Positions 12,195 through 37,155 are shown, counted from the first letter of the stretch. The stretch: 64,000 bases of DNA from Escherichia phage vB_EcoS_HdH2 (NC_048748.1), one strand, 5' to 3'. The notes: generated from the letters alone by a model not told the origin. Numbers and translations are program-made.

Positions 12195-12710
12195 TTACTT
12201 CACTTTACGTTTGCGAGCTGGTTTAGCAGATTTACGAGCAGAATCGCCTGTGAATTTAATACCCACACCGTAACACAGAGCACGAACATTATCCTTGCTA
12301 TATTCTACGCCAAAGATATTTGGCTTAACAGAACCAAACTGGCCACGAGTATCACGCAGTACATCTGCCGTTGGTTTGCGCTTCTGGTTAACTGCTTTTT
12401 CGTAATCTTTCATGGCCATGCCATTACGAGAGAACAATTCAGCTCCAGCATTGAAACTCAGTGTTACTGGAACAGATTTGTGACCATAACCCTGTACATA
12501 GGTCACAAGGCGGGCTACAGAACGAGTAGCATTCTTAGCCTTCGGCTTTTGACGAATCGGAGCCGGACGATTCAGTGCCTGTGCAGCTTGAGCATCAGTA
12601 GGATGCTTGCGCAGGTGGCGTTCCAGACGAGCTTTGCGGTTAGCCTCAGTCTGCGGGAAAGTTTTAACTGTAGTAGCTGCTTGAGTTTTTGCGTTTTTCT
12701 GCTTAGCCAT
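12195..12710 (-). CDS. hypothetical basic protein (171 aa), possibly nucleic-acid binding
   Basis: Lys/Arg-rich termini; behind the early promoter at 12736-12790. Confidence 0.5.
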   Translation of the reverse strand: MAKQKNAKTQAATTVKTFPQTEANRKARLERHLRKHPTDAQAAQALNRPAPIRQKPKAKNATRSVARLVTYVQGYGHKSVPVTLSFNAGAELFSRNGMAMKDYEKAVNQKRKPTADVLRDTRGQFGSVKPNIFGVEYSKDNVRALCYGVGIKFTGDSARKSAKPARKRKVK

Positions 12711-12785: not shown

Positions 12786-13235
12786 TTAATTTATTAACTG
12801 TAAGCTTCTTTTAATTTCAGACCTTACCTGCATCAAAAGAACTCCTAAAGTATTATCCCCGATGCCTCGGCAAACACCCCAATATGTATCTCCCCAGGTA
12901 TTTCCTTCAATCAAAGTTGCATTTTCTGTTGCTAACAGTTTGTCTCTCAAATCAGGGATTGCAAACTTTAACCGTAAAAGCTCTAGCATTACATCATCTT
13001 TTACCTTATCCCAGTCAGGGCGTATAATTAATTTACGTCCTCTACGTTTAGCAACTCCTGCATTTAGGGAACGTAATATATGAGCTACATCATCTTTTTG
13101 GTCGGATTTCATAGCCTGAAAAGCATGTTCTACAGTATCAGCATGCCATATTTCATTTAGGTATTCGAAAGTAATTGGTGATAAATAAAAGTTAGATAAG
13201 AAACTATAAGCACCTTTAAATTCAGTAATCTTCAT
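12786..13235 (-). CDS. NADAR / YbiA-like (DUF1768) family protein
   Basis: Family-typical motifs FLSNFY, EHAFQA, NTWGD...WG, LG.LLM. Confidence 0.6.
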   Translation of the reverse strand: MKITEFKGAYSFLSNFYLSPITFEYLNEIWHADTVEHAFQAMKSDQKDDVAHILRSLNAGVAKRRGRKLIIRPDWDKVKDDVMLELLRLKFAIPDLRDKLLATENATLIEGNTWGDTYWGVCRGIGDNTLGVLLMQVRSEIKRSLQLIN

Positions 13236-19779: not shown

Positions 19780-20070
19780 TTATTCAATTACTTTAGCTCT
19801 AGCTACTTCTTTTAATAGAATATCTATGGAGGTGCTCAGCTCGTTATAATTGAATGGTTTATTTGGATTTGAGGTTACAATTTTCCACGCTAGGGTTGTC
19901 TTAGGACTTTCTTCCCCTTCCTTACGTGTAATCATATTAGCAGCACTCAGTGAAGTACGATGTATTTTAGTTTTACGGCTCAGATGAACGACGTTTTCCA
20001 TATTACACCTTCCCCATGTCTTTAAAAATATCATAGAATGCTTTAGACTCAACAGAACGAACGTTATCAA
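19780..20070 (-). CDS. hypothetical protein (96 aa)
   Basis: ORF overlapping the phoH 3' end in another frame; weakly supported. Confidence 0.3.
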   Translation of the reverse strand: MITFVLLSLKHSMIFLKTWGRCNMENVVHLSRKTKIHRTSLSAANMITRKEGEESPKTTLAWKIVTSNPNKPFNYNELSTSIDILLKEVARAKVIE

Positions 20071-20755
20071 TCAATTCGATCATTGAGAATGGAGCATTTT
20101 CATATTTCTCATAAACTTCCATAAGAAGTGCTAGACCTGAGTCACCTTTAATGTCTTTCTGAGCTATATCCCCGCAGATAATTAAACGGCAGTCTTGTCC
20201 TACACGAGTTAGGAGACAAACCATTGCCTCAACGGAAATATTCTGAGCTTCATCGACAATTACATAGGAGTTGTTGAAAGTTCTGCCACGAGCATGTTCT
20301 ATAGCCAAAAATTTAATTTTCTGACGTTCGACATATCCCTTATAGGCATGATCACCGATGGCCCATTTCATACCATCAGCTATTGGCTCTAACCAAGGCT
20401 CTAGCTTTTCTGCTAGATCACCAGGAAGCATACCAAGAGACTTACCTAGAGGTTCATTAGGACGTACGAGGATCACTTGCTCAATATCTGAGTGAATGTC
20501 TATGAGTTCCTGAGCTGCAAGAACAGACGGGATAAAGGTTTTACCAGTACCTGGCTCACCAATACCCACAGTCACTGTGTTGTTCTTGATCATATTGATA
20601 TATGATTTTTGCTCGCGGTTTTTACCTACTAGGGATTTAGCAACTGGGTTAGCGTAATCATTAGAAAAATCAGCCTGAATTACGTTATTCTCATATTTGT
20701 TGCCACGCTTTCTTGAACCATTGCGGTTCTCTCTTTTTTGACGTGCTTTTCCCAT
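20003..20755 (-). CDS. phoH: PhoH-like ATPase
   Basis: Walker A GEPGTGKTF, Walker B VIVDEAQN; start at ATG (MGKARQ) behind AGGAG RBS and the promoter at 20815-20870. Confidence 0.75.
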   Translation of the reverse strand: MGKARQKRENRNGSRKRGNKYENNVIQADFSNDYANPVAKSLVGKNREQKSYINMIKNNTVTVGIGEPGTGKTFIPSVLAAQELIDIHSDIEQVILVRPNEPLGKSLGMLPGDLAEKLEPWLEPIADGMKWAIGDHAYKGYVERQKIKFLAIEHARGRTFNNSYVIVDEAQNISVEAMVCLLTRVGQDCRLIICGDIAQKDIKGDSGLALLMEVYEKYENAPFSMIELIDNVRSVESKAFYDIFKDMGKV

Positions 20756-21049
20756 AAATAACACTCCTATAGTGTACTTCGCTAACAGAGGATCAACAAA
20801 AAGATCTTGTTTATCAACTTACAAATATATTATACCAATATGTACAGTAAAAAGCAACTACAATTTTAAATAAGCCTATGATATTGCATTTAAATAAAAA
20901 ATTTGCTTGCTTTTAACGTGAGATGTGTGATACTAGATAATCATTTTATATCGCGTGCACGAGTGCGTGATTATACAATTTTTAATAGAGATTGGCAAAT
21001 AAAATTTTTTGACTCAGATCATGTTACAGAACTTTATAGTAAAATATTG

Positions 21050-21078
21050 TTGACATCCGCCCTCGAATGAGTTATAAT
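21050..21078 (+). promoter_or_regulatory. consensus sigma70 promoter (TTGACA, 17 nt, TATAAT) upstream of nrdD
   Basis: TTGACA at 21050-21055 and TATAAT at 21073-21078; RBS GAGAAGGAGAG precedes ATG 21108. Confidence 0.65.
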
Positions 21079-21107
21079 AGTAGTCTTAGTTAGAGAAGGA
21101 GAGTATA

Positions 21108-23079
21108 ATGAATCGCAATGAAGAACTAAAGTATAAAGAAATGCAGGCGTTAATTAGAAACTGCAAAGAGATTATCGAAGGGTCAGCAGATGAAGAGCTG
21201 CTGTTTAATAATGCCAATAAACCCTCAGAACGTTTCCCTACACAAAGGGATATGCTTGCAGGTGAATTGAGTAAGTATCTGATTCTAGAAGAAATGCCAA
21301 TTCAGATTCGAAATGCTCATATGATTGGGGATATTCATTTCCATGATGCTGATTATGCTGCATTAGGCATGACTAACTGTTGCCTGGTAGCTCTGGAAGA
21401 TATGTTGAAGAATGGTATGAAGGTTGGTAATGCTGAAATTAGCACTCCAAACTCTATCACTACTGCGGCGGCTATCACTGCTCAGATTATCACTCAAGTT
21501 AGCTCCCATCAGTATGGTGGTACTTCTGTAGACCGATTAGATGAAGTATTGGCTCCTTATGTTCGTAAGTCTTATGATAAGAATCATGCGTTTGCAAAAC
21601 GTTGGACTAAGGATGAAGCCAAAGCATCCGTAATGGCTACGGAGATGACTGAAAAAGAAGTCTATGATGCTTGTCAAGGTTTAGAATATGAAATCAATAC
21701 CATGTTCAACTCTAATGGTCAGAGCCCATTTATTACCTTTGGTTTTGGTCTAGGGACTTCTTGGGAAGCTCGTCTAGTACAGAAAGCAATACTGAAAGTA
21801 CGTATGGATGGTTTAGGTATCAATAAACGTACAGCTATCTTTCCGAAACTGGTGTTTGTTCTGCGTGATGGCGTAAATATGAAGCCAGGAGATGTTAATT
21901 ATGACATCAAGAAGTTAGCTATGAAATGTACTGCTGAACGTATGTATCCCGACTATATCAGCTACGATAAGGTTGTGGAAGTTACTGGTGACTATAAAGT
22001 TTCTATGGGCTGCCGTTCATTCCTAGCTGCTACAGAAGATGGTGAAACTGCAGGTCGTAATAACTTAGGTGTTGTTTCTGTAAACTTGCCTAGAATTGCT
22101 ATCGAAGCTGAAGGGAATATTGATCTATTCTTTGATTTGCTTGAGCTACGTGTGGATACAGCGTTAAAAGCATTGGAGTGGAGAGTTGATCGCTTAAAAT
22201 ACATTCAAGCTAAAGCCGCGCCCATCCTCTATATGTCAGGAGCCTTTGGGTTACGCTTGGGGCCTGATGAATATGTATTCGATCATTTCTATAACCGTGC
22301 TTTTATGCAGGTCTCGGACATTGTGTCTACATCTTTGCCAAACATGAACTGTAGCATTTCATGGCAACCAATATACCCTAGAGATACAGAAGCACCGTTC
22401 TGTATCTCTAGGGTATATTGGTTGCCATGAAATGCTACAGTTCATGTTTGGCAAAGATGTAGACACAATGTCCGAGACCTGCATAAAGTTTGTTCAGCGT
22501 GTATTGCAGTACATGCGAGATAGAGTCGATCAGAAGAAGGAAGAAACTAAGTTAGGTTATAGCCTGTATGCTACACCATCAGAATCCCTATGTGACCGTT
22601 TTTGTCGTCTAGACCGGGAATATTTCCCGGAGCATGAAGATATTCTGTCCAAAGGATACTACACTAACTCTCACCACCTTGATGTGGAACGTAAAGTTGC
22701 TCCTAACGTGAAATTTGATTATGAATCTAACTTTACTCCTATTGCTTCTGGTGGGTGTATTTCCTATGTAGAACTACCGGATATGAAACGATTCCCAGAT
22801 GCACTGGAATGGGTTATTAATTATGCTGCTAGTAAAGTTCATTACTTCGGTATTAATACTCCAGTGGATTCTTGTGGTAAATGTGGATTCTTAGGTGAAA
22901 CAATAGCATCCGAAGATGGGTTTAAGTGCCCTATCTGTGGTAATCATGACCCAGAAACTCTTGAAGTAACTCGTCGAGTTTGTGGATATCTTGGAAATCC
23001 AGGTGCTCGTCCATTTAACCCTGGCAAACAGCACGAGGTTATGGGCAGGGTGAAACACCAGGATATTCGAGCTAAATAA
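21108..23079 (+). pseudogene. nrdD: anaerobic ribonucleoside-triphosphate reductase gene, reading frame interrupted at 22391-22487 by an inverted duplication
   Basis: ORF 21108-22430 carries the NrdD N-terminal and core regions; ORF 22432-23079 carries the glycyl-radical motif RVCGYLG and a CxxC/CPICG zinc ribbon; deleting 22391-22487 (97 nt) joins the two in frame into about 624 codons. Confidence 0.75.
22302..22487. repeat. perfect inverted repeat: two 89-bp arms (22302-22390 and 22399-22487) around an 8-nt loop AGCACCGT
   Basis: Right arm is the exact reverse complement of the left arm as read base by base; left arm is in-frame nrdD coding sequence, right arm introduces a TGA. Confidence 0.9.
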
Positions 23080-23121
23080 GATAATCAGCCGGGTTGCTAG
23101 TCGACCTGGCTTTTATTTTAT

Positions 23122-23150
23122 TTGCTTTCAGCCAAAAATTTATATATAAT
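23122..23150 (+). promoter_or_regulatory. P-N25-like early promoter
   Basis: TTTGCTTTCAG...TATATAATAGATTTATAAATTTGAGAGG, near-identical architecture to the promoter at 29861-29915. Confidence 0.65.
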
Positions 23151-23177
23151 AGATTTATAAATTTGAGAGGAGAGTAT

Positions 23178-23537
23178 ATGGAACTAAAGCCATTTATTGT
23201 TGTATCTAAGTTAGGACATTATCACTTAGGAGTAGATACTATTCAGGAAGCTATTTTTGCTGCTACAGGTGATTACTCATTACTAGAAGGTATTGGATAT
23301 CCTACATTACTAGGTGACTTTGTAGAGCAAGAATTAGATATTACTGTTTATAATCCTATATATGAAGAACCTGAAGACTTAAAAGAGACCCTAGAATTTG
23401 TATATTGGAACCACCTGCAAGTGTTTAATGTTACCTCTAATGGCACAGAGGATTTCTCTTCTGTTATTAAACATCATATTAAGCAGGTTTACTACGATTA
23501 TTTCTATGAGGATATTGGAACGGAGCTAAAAGTATGA
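23178..23537 (+). CDS. hypothetical protein (about 119 aa)
   Basis: Start at ATG (MELKPF) behind GAGAGGAGAG RBS, downstream of the promoter at 23122. Confidence 0.55.
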   Translation: MELKPFIVVSKLGHYHLGVDTIQEAIFAATGDYSLLEGIGYPTLLGDFVEQELDITVYNPIYEEPEDLKETLEFVYWNHLQVFNVTSNGTEDFSSVIKHHIKQVYYDYFYEDIGTELKV

Positions 23538-23737
23538 AAAACGTAAAACATCTTAAATATCGCTTAATTTACAACGGACGTATGGAAACAGAAGACCTGG
23601 CCCAGTTAGCTATTAATTCTAATGAGGTTATAGTGCGTGCGCTGGCAATTGAAAAGTTGCGTGCTTCTTATGAAAATCGTGTTATGGAACTAGAGGAGAA
23701 ACTTTATGGCATTCTCGAAGCCGATGCTACCAGATAA
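23534..23737 (+). CDS. hypothetical protein (67 aa)
   Basis: Overlapping start/stop with neighbours in a compact operon. Confidence 0.45.
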   Translation: MKNVKHLKYRLIYNGRMETEDLAQLAINSNEVIVRALAIEKLRASYENRVMELEEKLYGILEADATR

Positions 23738-23927
23738 GGGTTTAAACTCCGTTTTGGAAAACGCATTAATGCAGCACTGGGAAACTGGCTATAAGGATGG
23801 TGTTGAATCCTGCGCTACTATGCTAGAAGTTATTGCTAATACCTTAATGGAGAAAGACAATAAAGAATTAGCTGAGCTATTAGACAGTATTGGGCAAAAC
23901 TTCAGAGAACAGGTGAAAAATGCGTAG
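23706..23927 (+). CDS. hypothetical protein (73 aa)
   Basis: ORF in operon; no recognisable domain. Confidence 0.4.
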   Translation: MAFSKPMLPDKGLNSVLENALMQHWETGYKDGVESCATMLEVIANTLMEKDNKELAELLDSIGQNFREQVKNA

Positions 23928-24744
23928 ATTAATTATTATTAGCGGTGCAGGTTTGAGTGTTGAAAGTGGCGTACGAGCTTTTCGTACTGATACTGCTAGT
24001 GGTAAAGCACTGTGGGATGATTATGATCTAGAAGAAGTATGTAATATTCATGCCTTTCGTGGTAATTTTTATCATAAAACCCATATGTTTTACAACAAGC
24101 GTCGTGAAGAGTTAGAAACTGTTGAACCTAATCTTGCACACTTGCGTATTGGTGAATGGTATAAGAAATATCCGGGTCAAGTAGTAAATTTGACTACTAA
24201 CGTTGATGACCTTATTGAGCGTGCTGGTGTTCCGCATAGTGACATTTTGCATATTCATGGATATTTAAAAGAGGTTGTTGTAGCTGACAGCTACAATAGT
24301 AGCAATAAACGAGTTATTGATGTTGGGTATAGCTCTATTGACCCAGATGATTATAAATGGGCTAAACCTAATGTAATCTTCTTTGGTGAGCATGCTCCAG
24401 CGTACGCAGAAATGTACAATATTTTTGATGGTATTACCAGTCAAGATATGATCGTTGTGGTTGGTTGCTCTAACCAAGTAATTAACTTCTACTGGGAATT
24501 ATTTCCTGTTCTTAATTTGACTGCTGCCAAATTAATGGTAGTTAACTACTATGATAGTGCCCTAGCGACAGAGCCAGGCTATCAAGGTATGACTCGTAGT
24601 GAGATGTACCAGCTGGAAGAACGCGGTATCCCTTACTGGAGTAAAGGGGCTGTAGATGCCTTCAGTGACCCTGATTTTATTGCTCGTGTAGAAGCTCATC
24701 TAGAGGGTAGACCTTATATGCCGGGGAAACAAATATGTCCATAA
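23920..24744 (+). CDS. SIR2/sirtuin-family protein lacking the zinc-ribbon cysteines
   Basis: Sirtuin motifs IIISGAGLSVESGVRAFR, NVDDLIERAG, HIHGYL; no CxxC pairs. Confidence 0.55.
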   Translation: MRRLIIISGAGLSVESGVRAFRTDTASGKALWDDYDLEEVCNIHAFRGNFYHKTHMFYNKRREELETVEPNLAHLRIGEWYKKYPGQVVNLTTNVDDLIERAGVPHSDILHIHGYLKEVVVADSYNSSNKRVIDVGYSSIDPDDYKWAKPNVIFFGEHAPAYAEMYNIFDGITSQDMIVVVGCSNQVINFYWELFPVLNLTAAKLMVVNYYDSALATEPGYQGMTRSEMYQLEERGIPYWSKGAVDAFSDPDFIARVEAHLEGRPYMPGKQICP

Positions 24745-24917
24745 TTAAATCTGTGTATACACACCCTGATGATATATTTGTATGGGCGGACGGTAGTTGG
24801 TGCTATCGCTGTGAGTTGTGGGAAATGGACTATAAATCCGATGACTATGGTGTTATATATGTGGATACGGTTGAGTATGATACGTTCTTAGAAAGGAACA
24901 AAAATGGAAATAAGTAA
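24735..24917 (+). CDS. hypothetical protein (60 aa)
   Basis: Short ORF overlapping neighbours. Confidence 0.35.
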   Translation: MSIIKSVYTHPDDIFVWADGSWCYRCELWEMDYKSDDYGVIYVDTVEYDTFLERNKNGNK

Positions 24918-25410
24918 TACTCCAATTATTTTTCTAGACATTGATGGGGTGCTCAATTCGAGCATCTCCCACCATCATGCACCTGATGATGAAAAGATTT
25001 TCTTTGGAAGTGACTGGGTTTTCAAACCGCTTCTCAAGGCTTTTCAGGACTTTATTCGTCCTTCTCCGATAATGATTGTTGGAGTATCCTCATGGTTCTC
25101 TGTCAGGAATGAGATGGAGAACGTTCAGATTATGACCGGATTAGGTCTTATCGATCGTTTTCTTGGTACAACGGATTTTACTGGTGGTGGGCTATCTAGG
25201 GGTAATTCTGTTCTTCGCTTCGTTGAAAAGCATAAGCTCAAACATTGGTGTGTGCTGGATGATGCCGGTGCTATGATGTATCAGTATCCAACGGTTATAG
25301 TCAATGGTAGAACAGGAATAAATCTTCAGGATTTAAAAGCTGTTAGCTATATGCTAGAATTTAGCCCAGATCTTGAAATGTGTAAATCCTTACAACAATT
25401 TAAGGTGTAA
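24904..25410 (+). CDS. HAD-superfamily hydrolase-like protein
   Basis: HAD motif I FLDIDGVLN near the N-terminus and acidic motif VLDDAG. Confidence 0.45.
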   Translation: MEISNTPIIFLDIDGVLNSSISHHHAPDDEKIFFGSDWVFKPLLKAFQDFIRPSPIMIVGVSSWFSVRNEMENVQIMTGLGLIDRFLGTTDFTGGGLSRGNSVLRFVEKHKLKHWCVLDDAGAMMYQYPTVIVNGRTGINLQDLKAVSYMLEFSPDLEMCKSLQQFKV

Positions 25411-25412
25411 AT

Positions 25413-25841
25413 ATGTTCAATAATGTATTCTCTAAAGAAGCTAACCCAATTTTGGTTAACTTTTGGCGTACTCTCCCGGCTAGCCTGTATAATGAGGCTA
25501 TTAACTCCTTGAAAATATGGTGTGAGAATAACGAAATCTCCTTTGCTTTTAAAGATGATATTGATGAGGCCCCCTGTATTGGTTTAATTGTTCAGGTAGA
25601 GGAGGGTCTTGAAGAAATTGTCGGCTGGAAAGAGTTAGATGAAATGGGCTTAGTTTTTGCGTTAAACTATAAGCTGTTTATGCCTGCTAAGCATCGCCTC
25701 GTTGTTAACTATAAAACCAGTGAATCTCCTGGCTTTCAAGTTAATGAACATTACGGTTGGTCTTACTCACCGGAAGAAGTAAATGAGGGGATTCAGAAAC
25801 TTCGACGTTTCGGGTATATGATCCCAGGTTTAACCGCCTAA
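25413..25841 (+). CDS. hypothetical protein, paralog 1 of a tandem pair
   Basis: Shares DDPCIG, GW(K/N)ELxxMGLxxALN and C-terminal GYxxPGL motifs with the next ORF. Confidence 0.5.
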   Translation: MFNNVFSKEANPILVNFWRTLPASLYNEAINSLKIWCENNEISFAFKDDIDEAPCIGLIVQVEEGLEEIVGWKELDEMGLVFALNYKLFMPAKHRLVVNYKTSESPGFQVNEHYGWSYSPEEVNEGIQKLRRFGYMIPGLTA

Positions 25842-25850
25842 GGGGGCACA

Positions 25851-26243
25851 ATGGAACAAGTATATTGGCGTCAGATTGATCCTAGTTTGGTGAAGCGTGC
25901 GGAGAAGCTGCTACAACGTTGGTTGGTGGTAAGACAAGCCTCCTTCACTTTTCCGGAGCAGCAAACGGATGATCCATGCATTGGCGTTTTCCTGTCTGGA
26001 TATGCCGGGGAGTGGGAATTGGATTGGAATGAATTGTCTGCTATGGGCTTGATTGTTGCCCTAAACTTCTCTATATTCCATCCACGTGGTTTGGCCATAT
26101 GTCGTGTGCCTGATGACGGTTGTTCGCCCCATCTTTTACAGGTGGAAGATGATATTTGGGAGTACACTCCAGGTATTCTCAAAGAAGCTAAAGAACAATT
26201 AAATCGTGTTGGGATCTATGTTCCGGGGCTAAATGATGAATGA
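25851..26243 (+). CDS. hypothetical protein, paralog 2 of a tandem pair
   Basis: Same motif set as 25413-25841. Confidence 0.5.
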   Translation: MEQVYWRQIDPSLVKRAEKLLQRWLVVRQASFTFPEQQTDDPCIGVFLSGYAGEWELDWNELSAMGLIVALNFSIFHPRGLAICRVPDDGCSPHLLQVEDDIWEYTPGILKEAKEQLNRVGIYVPGLNDE

Positions 26244-26265
26244 GTTTTATTAGCTGAACTCTGAT

Positions 26266-26292
26266 TACCGAGTCATTTTGGCTCGGTTTTAT
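26266..26292 (+). terminator. rho-independent terminator
   Basis: Hairpin CCGAG-TCATTTTGG-CTCGG followed by TTTT. Confidence 0.5.
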
Positions 26293-26334
26293 CCGTACTC
26301 AAGACCAGTGATAGCATCTTTGGAAAAAATTTAC

Positions 26335-26363
26335 TTGCATGATGCTCAAAATCTTGATATAAT
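26335..26363 (+). promoter_or_regulatory. sigma70 promoter (TTGCAT, 17 nt, TATAAT) with long leader to the 26861 gene
   Basis: TTGCAT at 26335-26340 and TATAAT at 26358-26363, followed by about 490 nt of non-coding sequence. Confidence 0.5.
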
Positions 26364-26860
26364 ATTTATATTGAATCGAGAGACATTAGTAAAAATTAAT
26401 TTTGCTAATTTTTCTTGTTTACAATCCGCGATACGGAACAGTTAGGCTGCCCCATTAAGGGTTGTTTTAACTATTACTAGTGTTTATATTGCATTAGTTA
26501 ATCTTCAATTAAGTGATCTGTGTACCCTGAATTCGGAAAGGTAAATCCAAACCGTGCATATTTAGCTCGTTATATAGGCAGAGTTTTATATGGGGGTGCG
26601 AACGAAAAGAGCAGCGAATGGCGGCACGTACAGTAGTCACCTACCAATAGGATAGTGAGGACAAATAGAATCGGCTTAGCGGCCAATGACCTAGGTTCTA
26701 TTCTGTATATGAGCGAAGAGAGCACAGCACTGAGATATGATAACTTATTCATATTGTTTGATGATAATTGATGTTTACGTAAATAGTAGTAATAGTTGTT
26801 CTATTCTTTCTGAATAGTCCTAAAGAAAAGATTTCGATTAACCAACACAGGAGTATTGTT

Positions 26861-29650
26861 GTGTTTTCTATCCTCCAAGGTCACGCTGGGTTTTCTCGTG
26901 ATTTAGCAACAGGTATTTGGCGAGAAATCAAAGCGGAAGATTATACCTTTGCCAAGCGATTCTCGAAAGAGCATCCAGAAGGTAAACCAGCTTCTATGCC
27001 CTTCAAATTTGATGTAATAGAAGAGCACGACCCTCAAAGCCTTGCCGAAATGTTACCACTTATGAGACGTTTAACGTCTGACCCTCATATCGTTGCGGTA
27101 CGAGGTCGGTGTCTTGCACCTAAAAATAACGTGCGACGTAAGAAAGGTAACTTTAATGTATCTAATCCTAGTAATATTATTGCTATGGACGTGGATGGTA
27201 TCCTAGATACCGGTGGGTATGACAAGTTTAACCTTGTTGGTATGGCCCGCCACATTATTAAGATGTTGAATAGTATTAGTGAGGACATGTTCCCTCTTGA
27301 TGCAGGCTTTATAGCTCATGCATCGTCTTCGGCTGGGCTAAAACCAGGTATCCGAATGCACTTAATGCTAGAATCTAACGTCAAGGTAACTCAGGGTCAG
27401 TTAAAGTTCTTATTTACATCTATCAACGATAGTAGTAAGCAAAAATTTGGTTTTGATATTGCCGACTTAGCTTATTATTCATCTGTCCAGCTCCACTATT
27501 TTGCCGACCCCTTATTTAGTGATGGTATTGTTGATCCGTTTAAAGCGGAGAGTAAGCCACGTCTGGTGTATGTTAAAGGTTCGAAAGTAAATTTGCCCAA
27601 TAATCTGGTTGACTATGAAACAACTAGAGGGGAGTTTAAGGAAGAGTTTTATTCTTTACTTGATCAAATTAAAGGCAAAAAGATCGCGTCTGATAAAGTA
27701 GAAGAAACCATCAGCGAATTGGAAGAAGCTGAGGATGGGGTGTACCTGCGTATTATCCCCAAACTCTACCATAGAGCATTAGAGGATGGTGTTGATTTTG
27801 CATGGCTAGAACGTGAGATTAAACCCGCTTTATCTGAATATATTGCAACTAAAGATAACAGTCGTAATATTCAAGATTACTTTAATAACGGTCGTAAGCA
27901 GGCTCTCAAAGCGTTTGTTAATAATTCTAAACGTGAGATTCCATTAAATCTGAAAGGTGTTCCGCTCAAGAAATTAGAAGTGGATTCTCCACCAGAAGTT
28001 CCGTACCTGAAGATTAACATTGTGCCTCCAAAAGGCCATATAACATTTGTTAAAGCAAGTCTTGGTACTGGTAAGACTACGGCAGTAACTAAATGGCTGG
28101 ACGCAGGTGTTCTTCCTGGCAACTTTTTAGCAGTTACAAATACTAGAGCACTGGTATCTTCAAACGCTAAGAAATTTAGCGCAGGACAATATGATAAGTC
28201 TGTAGATATGCTCAACTTTAAACGTGGAGCTATTGATCGTATGTCCACGACTATTCACTCTTTGCATAAGTTCAAAAGTTTTATTGGTCAAATAGATACC
28301 ATTTTTATTGATGAATGTGATGCTGTAATGAATGATCTATTATTCGCACCTGTTGTTAAGCAACGTCGCGAATGTATTCAAGTTCTACGTGACATCCTCA
28401 TGACAGCTAAAACTGTAATTCTATCAGATGGTGATATTAGTGCCGAAACTATTGAAGCATATGGTTCTCTAATTGATTTTGATAAACCAGTAGCATTTTA
28501 TAATCATCACCGTAAGATGCTGTCAAAAGCTCATGCTTATGAGTTCCCTGATGAATCCAGTATTTGGGTTGCACTTCAGACTTCCCTGGAGATGGGTGAG
28601 AAATCTATCCTAGTATCTGACTGTGGGCCAGATGAACTGAATGAGAAGGGCATGGCGTTGCGTCGTAATACGGGTGCGTTAGTTAAGGAAATCCACTCAA
28701 ACTCTACGTCTGATGTAGATATTAGACGTATTCTGGATTACACAACTAATGAACTAATTGATCAACAAATTGATTGCTTATTATGTAGTCCATCCGTAAC
28801 GAGTGGTGTTGACTTTAACTATTTTGATAACGTATTTGTTATTACTAGAACTAGTAATCAAGCGCCAAACATGCGCTTTCAAGCAATCAGGCGCGACCGT
28901 GGTGCTCAGAATATCTATTATTTTATTGATAAATCCACTAGTGGATTCTCCGCAGGTTCTGAACAGTATAATATTGATGAAGGTTGGCTGGAGTTAGCAC
29001 AGCAATTATACGCACGTCGCAGGGAGCTGGAATCTAGGAACTATACTAGTACTTTACGTTATTACTTGCTTGATCAAGGTGCAACTATTGATATTTTCAG
29101 CGAAAGCTGGGGAACTATTGAAGGTGCTGGTAAAGAATATACAGAAGAGCGAATCAAAGCCATTCTGCATTCAACTCCGGATTATTGTGCTCCACGTCAT
29201 GCGGATGCGTATGAAGCTAAACTACTTCTTGTTCGCTATTATCATCTTGAGTCTATTAAAGATGTAACAGTTGAGCATGTTGAACAATATATCAAAGATA
29301 AACCGAATGATCGAGCCGCCTTCTTCCATAAGATGCACGAGATGTTTTGGGAAGATATTAAGAAGTGTTCAAATGTAACCATTAAACCATTCATAGAAGC
29401 TCTGAAAGGTAAGAAAAAGGACTTCTTCCTTAAAACAGGTCAAAGTGCTAACCCAAAATATGCTAGAATGTATCTTGGTATGATGGGTATTGGTAAGGAT
29501 ATGAACACTGAAAATATCGTAGACTGGTATAGAACCTATTGTAAAATCGAGTGTATGCCAATCCCTTATAAGTTCATGACTGACGAGGAAAGACATATGC
29601 ACGATGAAGCAATGGCAGAGCTAGGTGCTAGAAATGACAGTGAAGAATAA
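26861..29650 (+). CDS. large P-loop helicase-like protein (929 aa), possible replication-origin-binding helicase
   Basis: Walker A ASLGTGKTTA, Walker B IFIDECD; GTG start behind ACAGGAG RBS. Confidence 0.5.
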   Translation: MFSILQGHAGFSRDLATGIWREIKAEDYTFAKRFSKEHPEGKPASMPFKFDVIEEHDPQSLAEMLPLMRRLTSDPHIVAVRGRCLAPKNNVRRKKGNFNVSNPSNIIAMDVDGILDTGGYDKFNLVGMARHIIKMLNSISEDMFPLDAGFIAHASSSAGLKPGIRMHLMLESNVKVTQGQLKFLFTSINDSSKQKFGFDIADLAYYSSVQLHYFADPLFSDGIVDPFKAESKPRLVYVKGSKVNLPNNLVDYETTRGEFKEEFYSLLDQIKGKKIASDKVEETISELEEAEDGVYLRIIPKLYHRALEDGVDFAWLEREIKPALSEYIATKDNSRNIQDYFNNGRKQALKAFVNNSKREIPLNLKGVPLKKLEVDSPPEVPYLKINIVPPKGHITFVKASLGTGKTTAVTKWLDAGVLPGNFLAVTNTRALVSSNAKKFSAGQYDKSVDMLNFKRGAIDRMSTTIHSLHKFKSFIGQIDTIFIDECDAVMNDLLFAPVVKQRRECIQVLRDILMTAKTVILSDGDISAETIEAYGSLIDFDKPVAFYNHHRKMLSKAHAYEFPDESSIWVALQTSLEMGEKSILVSDCGPDELNEKGMALRRNTGALVKEIHSNSTSDVDIRRILDYTTNELIDQQIDCLLCSPSVTSGVDFNYFDNVFVITRTSNQAPNMRFQAIRRDRGAQNIYYFIDKSTSGFSAGSEQYNIDEGWLELAQQLYARRRELESRNYTSTLRYYLLDQGATIDIFSESWGTIEGAGKEYTEERIKAILHSTPDYCAPRHADAYEAKLLLVRYYHLESIKDVTVEHVEQYIKDKPNDRAAFFHKMHEMFWEDIKKCSNVTIKPFIEALKGKKKDFFLKTGQSANPKYARMYLGMMGIGKDMNTENIVDWYRTYCKIECMPIPYKFMTDEERHMHDEAMAELGARNDSEE

Positions 29651-29867
29651 AAAATGGGAAACAAGGAAGTTTCCAGTAAAAGAACGTAAAGTTCCTGTTT
29701 ACGATACTTCGGAAAAGCTATGTAGGGTGGTACCGCACAGATTAGCTGGCATCCCTAACATATCCGAATGGTTACTTAAACAACGGAGGACTAACGTATC
29801 TCTTCGCATAGGGTTTGAGTTAGATAAAGTATATGCTGAACTTTCTTCTTTGCTCAAAGAATCATAA
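29634..29867 (+). CDS. hypothetical protein (about 77 aa)
   Basis: ORF overlapping the helicase 3' end in another frame; start uncertain. Confidence 0.35.
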   Translation: MTVKNKKWETRKFPVKERKVPVYDTSEKLCRVVPHRLAGIPNISEWLLKQRRTNVSLRIGFELDKVYAELSSLLKES

Positions 29868-29915
29868 AAAATTTATTTGCTTTCAGGAAAATTTTTCTGT
29901 ATAATAGATTCATAA
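29861..29915 (+). promoter_or_regulatory. phage T5 P-N25-type early promoter
   Basis: TCATAAAAAATTTATTTGCTTTCAGGAAAATTTTTCTGTATAATAGATTCATAAATTTGAGAG matches the T5 N25 promoter as I recall it; -35 TTGCTT at 29877-29882, -10 TATAAT at 29900-29905, 17-nt spacer. Confidence 0.8.
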
Positions 29916-29938
29916 ATTTGAGAGAGAGGAGTTTAAAT

Positions 29939-30643
29939 ATGGCTGGTTCTCGCAGAAAGAAACATATCCATGAAATCCCGGATGAAGTCTTTAAAAAAGT
30001 TATAGAGCATCTGGAGAACGGTGGTACTAAGAAAGCAGCATGTGAAATGCTCGGCGTATCATCCAACCCAACTATGGAAAGGATGATAGAAGAGTGGCAA
30101 GATCGCCAAATTCAAGTTGCCGAGATGAAGAAAAAGAAACGTGGCACACTCATTGAAGGCATTGAGTTAGCTAACGTTATTGAGCAGTATTTATCTGGTG
30201 ATTCTTTTGAAGAAATTGCCGATCGTAATTACCGCTCTGTAGCAATGGTTAAATCTGTTCTGGAACGATATGGTGCTCTACTTCGTTTGAACGATATTGT
30301 AGATCCATTGAATCCTCCAATTATTCCTGATGATGCTGTAGCAGAAGAATTTGCAGTTGGTGAGCTTGTTTGGGTTCCTGGGTACCAGTGTATCGGTGAA
30401 ATCAAAAAAGCAATGGATAATCCTGTTGGCTGTTATCGAGTCTGGTTACTATCGGAAGGCAAACAACAGAACGTTCATTATATGAATTACGAGCTGGCCT
30501 CTGTTAAACATCTGGAAAAGTTAGGGGTTGATGTAAAGTCTCTGGGGTATAAATGGACTCGGGAAGAAGTCATTACGTTGATTAACGAAGCTGTTAAGGC
30601 CGCCTTGAAACTTGATAAAGAAAAAGGAAAACGCCGTGAGTAG
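29939..30643 (+). CDS. helix-turn-helix DNA-binding protein (234 aa), possible early transcription regulator
   Basis: HTH-like segment GGTKKAACEMLGVSSNPTMERMI; ATG behind GAGAGAGGAG RBS directly downstream of the N25-type promoter. Confidence 0.5.
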   Translation: MAGSRRKKHIHEIPDEVFKKVIEHLENGGTKKAACEMLGVSSNPTMERMIEEWQDRQIQVAEMKKKKRGTLIEGIELANVIEQYLSGDSFEEIADRNYRSVAMVKSVLERYGALLRLNDIVDPLNPPIIPDDAVAEEFAVGELVWVPGYQCIGEIKKAMDNPVGCYRVWLLSEGKQQNVHYMNYELASVKHLEKLGVDVKSLGYKWTREEVITLINEAVKAALKLDKEKGKRRE

Positions 30644-35152: not shown

Positions 35153-36625
35153 ATGACCTTGTTTAACGTGCAAGCTGTAGTGTTGAAGATGCTTCTAGCT
35201 TCCGAACAGAAGCAAATAGCATTGGAAACATTCTCAAAACTGCATAAAGATCATTTTAATGACGCTTTCTCCTCAATTTACCAAGCCGTCCAGAATTATT
35301 ATAAAAAATATAACACAATGCCGTCCATTGACGCACTTATGCTTGAAGCTAATAGGAACGCCCGCCTTTCTCAAGCTCTAGTCGTCTTAGCTAACACTCA
35401 AATTCCAGAAGTGAGCATGGAACAGGCACTTGAAGTCCTAGAAGCCGAATATACACAGGATTTATTCCTGAAGCTTCTAGAAACAGACGTGCTTCAAGAT
35501 TTAACAATGCTGGATCAGGGAGAAATTCTCAACCGAGTTGCCTCCCTTCACTTAAAATTAGAAGAGAAAGTAACGAATACTGGAAAAGTATTCAACGCAG
35601 ATAACATGCGTATTTTCCAGAGAGAAGAAGATACCAAACTGAACTTAATCGCTCTTGGTATTTGTAATGAGTTCGACGCTCAAATCGGTTTAGCTCGCAC
35701 AGAAACGTTACTGCTTGGTGGTTGGCGTGGTACTGGTAAATCCATTATCTGTTCAAACATACAGGTTCAGCAATATTTGAATGGGGATATTGCTCCATAC
35801 TTCTCAATTGAGATGAAAGAACATGAAGTATTTAGACGTAATCTAGCCATGTTAGCTGGTGTATCAGCATTAGCAATGCGTAATAATACTCTAGAAGGTG
35901 CACCTCTATTGAGATTAGCCAGAACTAGAGCTAGAATGTTTAATGGGGGTGAAGAGCTTTTCGACAACTTCGTTAAACAGTACACAATGGCTAAGATGAG
36001 TGATTTCTACGATATGGAAAGTAAGCTAATAGAAGGGTATGAGCTACATACTCCTATGATTATTGTTTATGATCCTGAGCTGTCTATTACAACAGTTGAC
36101 GTAGAATTAAATAAATTAGTTGCTAGATATGGGGATAAAGTTACAGTAGCTTTATTGGACTATATTAACCAAACCCGACTTCCAGATTCTAAAACCATTG
36201 ATATGTATGACTGGAAAGAACAGATGGTTGTTAGCTCGTCTTTCAAATCTATCTGTCAGAAACATAACGTGGCTGGTGTAGCTCCTTACCAGATCGATCA
36301 AGATGGTAGAACACGTATGTCAAAAGGGATTCTTGATTCCGCAGACATGGCTGCTAATCTTAATGCTGCAAAAGCTGATAATGGTCAAGGTGCTATTATG
36401 TTTGACTTCGTTAAGACCCGTTCTTCTGATAGCGTGAAGTTTATGCCTAAAATGAACTGGGAAACCCTGCGGATGGATAACACTACCAACCTAGCAATGG
36501 AAGATATATCTCAAATGGAAGCTGAGTTCGTTATCCCTATTGAGAAGGATAAGCCAGCTCAATCTAAACGTGCTAAGAAAGACAAAGCTGAAAATTCAAC
36601 AGGTGAACAGGCCAGCGATATATGA
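35153..36625 (+). CDS. P-loop replicative-helicase-like protein (DnaB/RecA-fold)
   Basis: Walker A GGWRGTGKS and Walker B-like IIVYDPE; start at ATG (MTLFNV) behind AAAGGAGA RBS, because the upstream ORF-track codons overlap the terminator. Confidence 0.5.
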   Translation: MTLFNVQAVVLKMLLASEQKQIALETFSKLHKDHFNDAFSSIYQAVQNYYKKYNTMPSIDALMLEANRNARLSQALVVLANTQIPEVSMEQALEVLEAEYTQDLFLKLLETDVLQDLTMLDQGEILNRVASLHLKLEEKVTNTGKVFNADNMRIFQREEDTKLNLIALGICNEFDAQIGLARTETLLLGGWRGTGKSIICSNIQVQQYLNGDIAPYFSIEMKEHEVFRRNLAMLAGVSALAMRNNTLEGAPLLRLARTRARMFNGGEELFDNFVKQYTMAKMSDFYDMESKLIEGYELHTPMIIVYDPELSITTVDVELNKLVARYGDKVTVALLDYINQTRLPDSKTIDMYDWKEQMVVSSSFKSICQKHNVAGVAPYQIDQDGRTRMSKGILDSADMAANLNAAKADNGQGAIMFDFVKTRSSDSVKFMPKMNWETLRMDNTTNLAMEDISQMEAEFVIPIEKDKPAQSKRAKKDKAENSTGEQASDI

Positions 36626-37155
36626 TAACACAGGAACGACTAAAAGAACTGTTTGACTACTCCCCAGAGACTGGGGAGTTTATTAGAAAAGTATCTAGAG
36701 GCAGCCAGAAAGCCGGGAGTATAGTAACTAGAAAGGATTCAAACGGTTATATAATTATCGGTATAGATGGTAGGGATTATAAAGCCCATCGTATGGCCTT
36801 CCTATTTATGGAAAACACGTTACCTGAAAAAGTAGACCATGTAAATAGAATACCCTTTGATAACCGATGGTGTAATCTAAGAGACGCCACAGCCCAGGAA
36901 AATAGTAGAAATAAAACCGCATGTAGTAAGTCTGGATATTTGGGAGTTGCTTGGGATATAGAAAAACAAAGATGGAGAGTTCAAGTAAGAGACTCTAATA
37001 GCACTCTTAAAAATGGTGGCAGATTTAAGTATGAAGAGCTAGAGCTAGCTGTAAATTCAGCAAATATATTAAGGGCTAAGTTACATGGAGAACGTGCTGT
37101 TATAGAAATTTTTGATACATCTAATTATCCTTCGCTGGAGGAGTTAAATTCATGA
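36622..37155 (+). mobile_element. HNH homing endonuclease with AP2-like DNA-binding domain
   Basis: HNH motif (AHRMAFL...VDHVNRIPFDNRWCNLR) and AP2-like segment YLGVAWDIEKQRWRVQV; AT-rich codon usage; inserted between helicase and primase. Confidence 0.65.

Follow-up and report, generated by a model that had tools for sequence, protein, structure and literature searches.

A distinct clade of phage sirtuins with three types of gene neighbourhood has been described (Iyer, Burroughs, Aravind et al. 2022; PMC9503650, section 3.7.3). In the 'type 3' neighbourhood, which is found in T5-like phages and includes that of Escherichia phage SP15, the sirtuin is accompanied by a Swiss-army-knife-type (SAK) HAD protein (PMC9503650). 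It was predicted that the sirtuin removes 2'-phosphates from RNA in a KptA-like reaction that depends on nicotinamide adenine dinucleotide (NAD), and that the HAD and other phosphoesterases process RNA ends or ADPR>P (ADPR, ADP-ribose) (PMC9503650). Here we describe a block of five genes at 23920-26243 on the + strand in a 64,000-nt stretch (hereafter, the window) of Escherichia phage vB_EcoS_HdH2 (NC_048748.1), which encodes a zinc-less sirtuin (Sir2), a 60-aa protein, a HAD phosphatase and two paralogs of the DUF7415 family. The stretch matched many Tequintavirus genomes at 95-97% DNA identity over its full length, and 445 phage records match. The HdH2 stretch is that of a T5-like phage, and the block is the counterpart of T5.102-T5.107, part of an early transcription unit. 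SP15 is presumably a T5-like phage as well, and the HdH2 block has the genes, order, promoter and terminators of T5.102-T5.107 and, as in the type 3 neighbourhood, a sirtuin of this clade with a SAK-type HAD. There is no substantive difference from either; the 60-aa partner and the DUF7415 pair go unmentioned in the text of PMC9503650. In HdH2, as in T5, only the 60-aa open reading frame (ORF) lies between the sirtuin of this clade and the HAD, which makes the locus a member of type 3.

The gene block

The five genes are arranged as follows.

23920-24744, + strand: zinc-less phage sirtuin of 274 aa, T5.102 homolog (PF02146)
24735-24917, + strand: 60-aa 'DIF..DG.WCYR' protein, T5.104 homolog (phrog_5116, E 6e-30), overlapping both neighbours
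24904-25410, + strand: capless HAD_SAK_2 phosphatase of 168 aa, T5.105 homolog (PF18143)
25413-25841, + strand: DUF7415 paralog A of 142 aa, T5.106 homolog (PF24187, E 5e-36; phrog_2502)
25851-26243, + strand: DUF7415 paralog B of 130 aa, T5.107 homolog (PF24187, E 9e-31; phrog_2502)

The sirtuin, HAD and paralog genes lie, on the + strand, where the original prediction, made from the sequence alone, had put them; its gene list was incomplete, as the conserved 60-aa ORF between Sir2 and HAD had been overlooked. The order of T5.099-T5.108 in phage T5 is reproduced (T5.102, Sir2; T5.104, 60 aa; T5.105, HAD; T5.106 and T5.107, paralogs), and in the T5 record a promoter and terminators are annotated for the unit T5.100-T5.107. 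In HdH2, eight closely spaced ORFs lie at 23087-26292 (+), the final five being the block, and the gene junctions are overlaps or spacings of 2-9 nt. In T5-like lineages the block occupies a slot between nrdD (or phoH) and the gene for the origin-binding helicase. A literature search on DUF7415, HAD_SAK_2 and the T5.102-T5.107 locus tags found nothing. The block genes are real and conserved, long deposited and annotated, already catalogued and uncharacterised.

A variable accessory slot in T5-like phages

We surveyed gene context in three sets of loci, i.e., protein-hit loci, 66 HAD loci and 58 sirtuin loci in IMG/VR, with purpose-built hidden Markov models (HMMs). Locus numbers (L) below refer to these surveys. 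The following arrangements were found.

HdH2 lineage: Sir2, 60-aa ORF, HAD, two DUF7415 genes
L112: Sir2, HAD, one DUF7415 gene
L133/L134: Sir2, 60-aa ORF, DUF7415 pair, without HAD
L130: Sir2, one DUF7415 gene, without HAD
L006, L010, L013: HAD, another gene, Sir2, without DUF7415
L030 (Shigella phage SHSML-45): DUF7415 pair retained after deletion of Sir2 and the 5' portion of HAD

The sirtuin was present in all but one of the examined T5-like loci, the HAD in zero or one copy and DUF7415 in zero, one or two copies. Because the slot is filled differently in each lineage, the sirtuin, often with the 60-aa protein, is the anchor, and HAD and DUF7415 are optional. The block is a variable accessory slot and not a single coherent system. 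The original prediction had implicitly treated it as one unit, which does not agree with the independent gain and loss of HAD and DUF7415 relative to the sirtuin among T5-like lineages; the synteny comparison that it had proposed shows the nrdD-helicase slot to be kept in these lineages and its contents to be variable. Sir2 and HAD are neighbours in four T5-like lineages with differing gene orders, and L137 also has both. DUF7415 is absent from L006-L010, L012 and L013. We rejected DUF7415 as a conserved partner of Sir2 and HAD, as HMM scans of 13 context loci and the 58 sirtuin loci revealed independent presence and absence.

L030 (IMGVR_UViG_2706796320_000001) retains nrdD and the DUF7415 pair, has no sirtuin and keeps only residues 64-168 of the HAD. 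This natural deletion suggests that propagation on laboratory hosts requires neither Sir2 nor HAD.

The 'WCYR' protein of 60 aa lies directly 3' of Sir2 in four lineages, independently of the position of HAD; its match in L133 had an E-value of 9e-17, and those in L006 and L010 were marginal. In L130 (7785-7952) and L112 (7741-7929), a hydrophobic ORF of 55-62 aa ('LSQI.QDA...') replaces it after Sir2, and the products of these ORFs are probably membrane-spanning.

It could be argued that the five genes make one dedicated system in which the DUF7415 pair serves as regulatory or specificity subunits of Sir2 and HAD, since they form a single transcription unit of overlapping or near-abutting genes and several T5-like lineages, including some that lack HAD (L130, L133/L134), have DUF7415 after Sir2. 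However, this is very unlikely: Sir2 and HAD occur without DUF7415 in L006, L010 and L013, the V5-like Sir2 loci lack DUF7415, SHSML-45 retains the pair after loss of Sir2 and the HAD 5' part, and DUF7415 is found in T4-like phages without Sir2 or HAD and is fused to unrelated nucleotide enzymes.

The zinc-less sirtuin

A Sir2-like protein with NAD motifs and without zinc cysteines had been predicted, and such a protein is encoded at 23920-24744. It matched PF02146 with E 1.1e-23 and 84.5 bits (cutoff 24), residues 9-187 covering positions 1-178 of the 180 in the profile, and E. coli CobB (1s5p) with E 1.7e-17 as a single sequence and 5.7e-26 with the family profile. The closest solved relatives are CobB, then Sir2Af1/2 and SIRT5, all of which are deacylases. 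In the alignment with CobB, GAGxSxxSGxxxFR, TTNVDD (with Q changed to T), catalytic H113-G114, FFGE and GxS are kept, the aligned NAD-binding stretches being SGAGLSVESGVRAFR and GAGLSVESGVRAFR. Furthermore, F57-Y58-N-K-R61-R62 aligned to FYNARR of CobB, which contains the class III YxxR pair. Across 19 homologs with 55-84% identity, drawn from phages of the T5-like, V5-like, Erwinia and Serratia groups, H113, GAGxS, FYNKRR (including Y58 and R61 of the YxxR pair), TTNVDD, FFGE, GxS and N209 are invariant. There are only three cysteines, C41, C183 and C273, and none in residues 114-148, the segment that replaces the zinc module of CobB. This segment is free of Cys in 19/19 family members, and a zinc site of two Cys pairs is thus absent. 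Because the motifs are invariant and the absence of Cys is family-wide, the zinc loss is an old trait of the family under purifying selection and not decay.

In summary, the phage sirtuin shares with CobB and SIRT5 the Rossmann NAD motifs, the catalytic His, FGE and the YxxR pair, but it lacks the zinc-ribbon Cys, has T for Q in QNxD and carries an extra conserved C-terminal segment. It also scored far under the cutoffs of the CobB equivalog models of NCBIfam (NF040867, 87 vs 320 bits; NF001753, 97 vs 243 bits). Judged from these motifs and scores, the sirtuin belongs to a phage-specific zinc-less clade, descended from CobB-like (class III-like) deacylases and unlike the defence NADases.

Loss of the zinc or substrate domain is typical of defence SIR2 NADases, and the gene is expressed early, so the protein might be imagined as a free NADase for host shutdown or exclusion of competitor phages, like defence SIR2 effectors. 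We regard this as extremely unlikely. None of the PADLOC models of SIR2 defence proteins (ThsA, DSR, SIR2-HerA, SPARSA) matched the sirtuin at E <= 0.01. In addition, the nearest relatives are deacylases, the substrate-binding motifs are kept, relatives co-occur with NAD-rebuilding genes, and the phage needs NAD for its own DNA ligase. PADLOC gave zero matches across all five block proteins, and the idea of the block as a defence system was therefore rejected.

RNA-repair and NAD genes near related sirtuins

Sirtuin orthologs of about 60% identity are present in V5-like phages, within a 14-kb stretch that also has genes for an Rnl1-type RNA ligase, cREC and a kinase, NARP1 genes and NADAR. In L012 the order is Metallophos, RNA_lig_T4_1, cREC_REC, AAA_33, a 74-aa ORF and SIR2; divergent NARP1-type Prs and NAPRTase genes lie about 5 kb off, and NADAR about 6 kb downstream. 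This layout was observed in at least six IMG/VR loci, and Rnl1 or NAPRTase neighbours were found elsewhere, including the unrelated contigs L138 and L140. NARP1 was discovered in phage Bas63 of the BASEL collection (bioRxiv 10.1101/2024.02.11.579819), which we take to be V5-like. A Macro-domain phosphatase feeds ADP-ribose-1''-phosphate (ADPR-1''P) into NARP1 and extends NARP1 against RES-type defence (aRES) (bioRxiv 10.64898/2026.01.28.702374). NARP1 genes (Adps, Namat) were not detected in the window. T5-like phages carry an NAD-dependent DNA ligase, and some have NARP3.

The NADAR gene that had been noted elsewhere in the stretch is indeed present at 12786-13235 (-) (PF08719, E 1.9e-21). 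It adjoins a DUF7022 gene at 12195-12710 (-) in the leftward early operon, and at this site T5 has an unrelated ORF of 92 aa, T5.090. A close NADAR copy (at least 90% identity) was found in about 94 phage records, whereas the block is in about 445, and NADAR is therefore a cassette whose presence varies among T5-like phages.

The main rival to a role of the sirtuin in RNA repair is that it is a CobB/SIRT5-like protein lysine deacylase, perhaps preferring acidic acyl groups, which resets host or phage protein acylation early in infection (on, e.g., metabolic, nucleotide-synthesis or replication enzymes), with HAD and DUF7415 as unrelated neighbours. This is possible, although we consider it doubtful. 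The closest solved or curated relatives are all deacylases (CobB, E 5.7e-26; Sir2Af; SIRT5), the catalytic His, FFGE and Y58-x-x-R61 align exactly with CobB and are invariant, and HAD and DUF7415 are dispensable as partners. On the other hand, the zinc module, which in canonical sirtuins makes up one half of the cleft for peptide binding (PMC8556138), has lost all cysteines family-wide, the equivalog scores fall far short, and the clade recurs among genes for RNA ligase, cREC, kinase and NARP1, and not among protein-modification genes.

The HAD phosphatase

The HAD-motif protein with FLDIDGVLN was correctly recognised by the original prediction. It matched PF18143 (HAD_SAK_2) with E 4e-20 and 73 bits (cutoff 27.5) over positions 1-138 of the 139 in the profile. 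FLDIDGVLN, VSSWF, GGGxxRG and V-DD-G do not vary among 13-14 relatives, the most distant of them at 37% identity. Motifs I-IV are all present, with D12, D14, S62/S63, R99 and D119/D120 invariant in 14 sequences; R99 is the presumed motif III residue. The AlphaFold model (predicted local distance difference test score, pLDDT, 94) has a capless Rossmannoid HAD core. A search of solved structures with the HAD sequence detected no relative, and identity to the capless (C0) HADs MDP-1 and the SCP1/FCP1-type CTD phosphatases is only 13-15%. The modelled capless fold resembles those of HADs that act on macromolecules.

In T4-like phages the HAD is present alone. In ChuuTotoro-like phages (about 150 kb), a NARP1-type operon has a HAD_SAK_2 homolog as its upstream gene (L007, 6001-9217; L008, 7001-10569; L009, 7001-10519). 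These homologs are 37-43% identical to the HdH2 HAD and are coupled to Prs-like (Adps) and NAPRTase-like (Namat) genes, the homolog in L007 overlapping the Prs-like gene by 4 nt; the loci have no sirtuin at the usual place. NARP1-AP (Adps-Adpp-Namat) likewise has a phosphatase gene inside a Prs-like/NAPRTase-like operon, as the T5.105 homologs are placed in L007-L009, but the published phosphatase is a Macro domain and not a HAD, and the HdH2 window lacks Adps and Namat. The ChuuTotoro-type HAD might be a counterpart of the NARP1-AP phosphatase that lacks the Macro fold.

This context raises the possibility that Sir2 and HAD act on soluble NAD or ADP-ribose metabolites, the HAD being an ADPR-phosphate phosphatase, a non-homologous analogue of the Macro protein Adpp, that detoxifies or recycles ADPR-1''P or 2'-phospho-ADPR made by host RES-type or other NAD-degrading defences or by the phage sirtuin. 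The translational coupling of HAD homologs (37-43% identity) to Adps and Namat genes on three ChuuTotoro-like contigs supports it, as do the known joining of an ADPR-1''P phosphatase to NARP1 against aRES and the NAD dependence of T5-like phages, through their NAD-dependent DNA ligase and, in some, NARP3. However, the three NARP1-linked cases represent a single phage lineage, NARP1 genes that the HAD could supply are lacking in the window, the aRES paper names no HAD among NARP1-associated genes (bioRxiv 10.64898/2026.01.28.702374), and a sirtuin that uses up NAD would be a strange companion to NAD salvage; for the pair as a whole we judge this explanation quite unlikely. A role of the HAD in ADPR-phosphate salvage is a new lead.

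Homologs of T5.105 are widely annotated 'Sir2 (NAD-dependent deacetylase)' in RefSeq, because phrog_18062 bears that name; this phrog matched the C-terminal half of the HAD with E 6e-58 and the sirtuin weakly (E 2e-6). In other records DUF7415 genes are named 'tail protein' or 'tail tube protein'. Both the Sir2 label on HAD and the tail labels on DUF7415 look like annotation errors.

The DUF7415 pair

The two adjacent genes at 25413-25841 and 25851-26243 are paralogs, as had been proposed, with 32% identity over 124 aa (BLASTP, E 1e-20). They had been assigned to no recognised family; both in fact belong to DUF7415 in Pfam (123 and 106 bits, cutoff 27) and were also matched by an independent HMM of the core, made from 44 of the short members (E 1e-21 and 3e-17). 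Of the DDPCIG motif that they were said to share, only 'PCIG' is common to both, and its Cys is Ser in several orthologs. The alternative that they are fragments of one gene was rejected: they are two full-length ORFs with their own starts, are separately annotated as T5.106 and T5.107, and are two separate ORFs in 26/26 close T5-like IMG/VR loci that were scanned.

An exhaustive profile search of 1.8 billion representatives revealed only 166 relatives, mostly small stand-alone proteins. Their core of about 55 aa reads W-N-E-L-S-x-x-G-L...N...H-P-x-G-L-A...S-P...W-x-Y; in T5-type proteins about 55 further aa extend it at the N-terminus. Paralog A is the more divergent copy, with a degenerate 'HPxGLA' motif. 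An internal duplication was suggested by two Pfam stretches per protein and a weak core-HMM match at the N-terminus of paralog A, but was rejected because the hhalign comparison of N-half and C-half profiles returned a probability of 1.9%. The structure model (pLDDT 80) has no significant solved analogue, its matches in BFVD are members of its own family only, and the alignments contain no conserved polar constellation indicative of catalysis.

The core is found fused to a MazG-like dATP/dGTP pyrophosphohydrolase (PF04447), a thymidylate-kinase-like domain and ASCH/DUF3850 domains. In the T4-like Klebsiella phage JD18 (L003, 4992-5210), a DUF7415 gene of 72 aa lies exactly between nrdD and nrdG, tblastn matches in Klebsiella phages 15882-3-4 and phiKp_22 are likewise at nrdD, and in phages Rpl1 and Margaery DUF7415 adjoins a Nudix gene. 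DUF7415 proteins look like small non-catalytic adaptors made of a promiscuous phage domain, which elsewhere is associated with nucleotide-metabolism enzymes, and the pair is probably outside the chemistry of sirtuin and HAD. DUF7415 may be a docking domain by which small proteins and enzymes (MazG-like, kinase, ASCH) are brought to the machinery of phage nucleotide synthesis, e.g., NrdD.

A possible role in NAD-dependent repair

For the sirtuin and the HAD we tentatively favour, with somewhat less than even confidence, a mechanism of the published type, in which the sirtuin ADP-ribosylates an anionic nucleic-acid acceptor and the HAD removes a phosphate. The sirtuin would consume NAD+, move ADP-ribose to the acceptor and free nicotinamide. 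The acceptor would be a 2'-phosphate on broken or re-ligated RNA, as in the Tpt1/KptA step (after PMC9503650), and the HAD would strip a terminal phosphate either from a nucleic-acid end or from the by-product, ADP-ribose-phosphate. The pair would thus provide the phage with early NAD-dependent repair and clean-up against host attack on RNA or NAD. The analogy is with Tpt1/KptA and the Poa1p-type ADPR-1''P phosphatase, in which NAD-dependent removal of the RNA 2'-phosphate is followed by dephosphorylation of the by-product, and the likeness is supported by members of the clade adjoining RNA ligase, cREC and kinase. However, the folds are unrelated (sirtuin vs ADP-ribosyltransferase, ART; HAD vs Macro), and no ligase or cyclic phosphodiesterase was found in the window.

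Several observations weigh against this repair mechanism. HAD is missing in the sirtuin-bearing T5-like loci L130 and L133/L134, and it occurs without sirtuin in T4-like and ChuuTotoro-like phages. Much of the co-location is synteny shared by descent, so that independent events are few. A general neighbourhood signature for HAD_SAK_2 relatives was rejected, since there is no dominant partner: in a Pfam scan of 150 neighbour ORFs at 43 non-redundant viral loci of distant HAD relatives, no family occurred more than twice. HMMs of V5-like Rnl1 and cREC, which are small and of limited sensitivity, matched nothing over the window; with RNA ligase, cREC and NARP1 undetected there, the proposed pathway would be incomplete and would need host enzymes. 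The sirtuin keeps the FGE substrate staple and the class III YxxR pair, which are deacylase-like and unneeded for a Tpt1-like role. Finally, no experimental work on any of the five block proteins was found in the literature.

The original prediction had pointed to an NAD or ADP-ribose theme. This is supported in part: it fits the sirtuin and, less firmly, the HAD, through the sirtuin motifs, the V5-like context, the HAD in NARP1 operons and the published RNA-repair prediction, but it does not extend to the DUF7415 pair, whose family elsewhere goes with nucleotide-metabolism genes, and NADAR is a variable cassette. If the HAD were an ADPR-phosphate or RNA-end phosphatase linking to NAD recycling, this would explain its homologs in NARP1 operons. 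A more specific version, in which the zinc-less sirtuin is not a protein deacylase but an NAD-dependent ADP-ribosyl- or phosphotransferase that acts on phosphates of nucleic acids, like Tpt1 but with a sirtuin fold, the HAD a new non-Macro phosphatase of ADPR-phosphate or RNA ends, and DUF7415 a docking domain, is unlikely to be right in full.

Flanking features

The unit that contains the block has the following further features.

23087-23111, + strand: terminator-like hairpin at the upstream unit boundary, after the nrdD stop, with a 10-bp stem (6 GC pairs) followed by a T-run
23175-23537, + strand: T5.100 homolog of 120 aa that opens the unit (phrog_11748, E 3.7e-65; no Pfam family)
23534-23737, + strand: 67-aa ORF (phrog_5236, E 1.3e-45), overlapping both neighbours
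23706-23927, + strand: 73-aa ORF (phrog_5827, E 7e-30), its 3' end overlapping the Sir2 start
26267-26292, + strand: terminator-like hairpin at the downstream unit boundary, read from the sequence as ACCGAG-9 nt-CTCGGT, then TTTTAT

At the equivalent of 23087-23111, T5 has an annotated rho-independent terminator followed by a promoter, and a rho-independent terminator is also annotated directly after T5.107. The ribosome-binding site of 23175-23537, AGGAGAG, is similar to that of nrdD. A sigma-70 promoter of perfect consensus is present at 21050-21078, upstream of nrdD. Between the block and the origin-binding helicase gene, 617 nt (26244-26860) have no ORFs; within this gap lie TTGCAT-17-TATAAT, which resembles a promoter, near 26336-26364 and a pair of 18-nt inverted repeats (26469-26486 and 26780-26797). 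The gap has no Rfam match, and its equivalent in L006 measures about 1.4 kb.

At 22302-22487 the nrdD gene (21108-23079) carries an inverted repeat, perfect over 90 nt, with its arms 6 nt apart. It is a 97-nt insertion, an exact reverse complement of the next 90 nt, which splits the gene into ORFs 21108-22430 and 22432-23079. In relatives nrdD is intact (1875 nt), and none of the 178 matching phage records has the insertion, which looks like either a lesion of very recent date or an artefact of assembly or foldback. Rfam over 20000-30000 gave only sub-threshold hairpin look-alikes at this palindrome, the inverted repeat resembling miRNA hairpins. Elsewhere, an HNH endonuclease ORF at 36622-37155 (+) (PF13392, E 6e-8) lies between the replicative helicase and primase genes and is not at the equivalent position in Elw and NBEco001; it is probably a homing endonuclease insertion.

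Implications

As the genes and the RNA-repair prediction were both already known, novelty is low; the finding is a correct description of known annotated genes, with modest new leads only. NAD is a central battleground between bacteria and phages, on which NAD-depleting host defences face NARP1, NARP2 and NARP3. We know of no phage-encoded sirtuin with a characterised biochemistry. T5, a classic and tractable model, carries the sirtuin together with the phosphatase linked to it and a DNA ligase that depends on NAD. Were the sirtuin a Tpt1-like modifier of RNA or nucleotides, or the HAD an ADPR-phosphate phosphatase, this would be a new enzyme class in phage counter-defence and would account for a set of genes found in hundreds of phages that are candidates for therapy.

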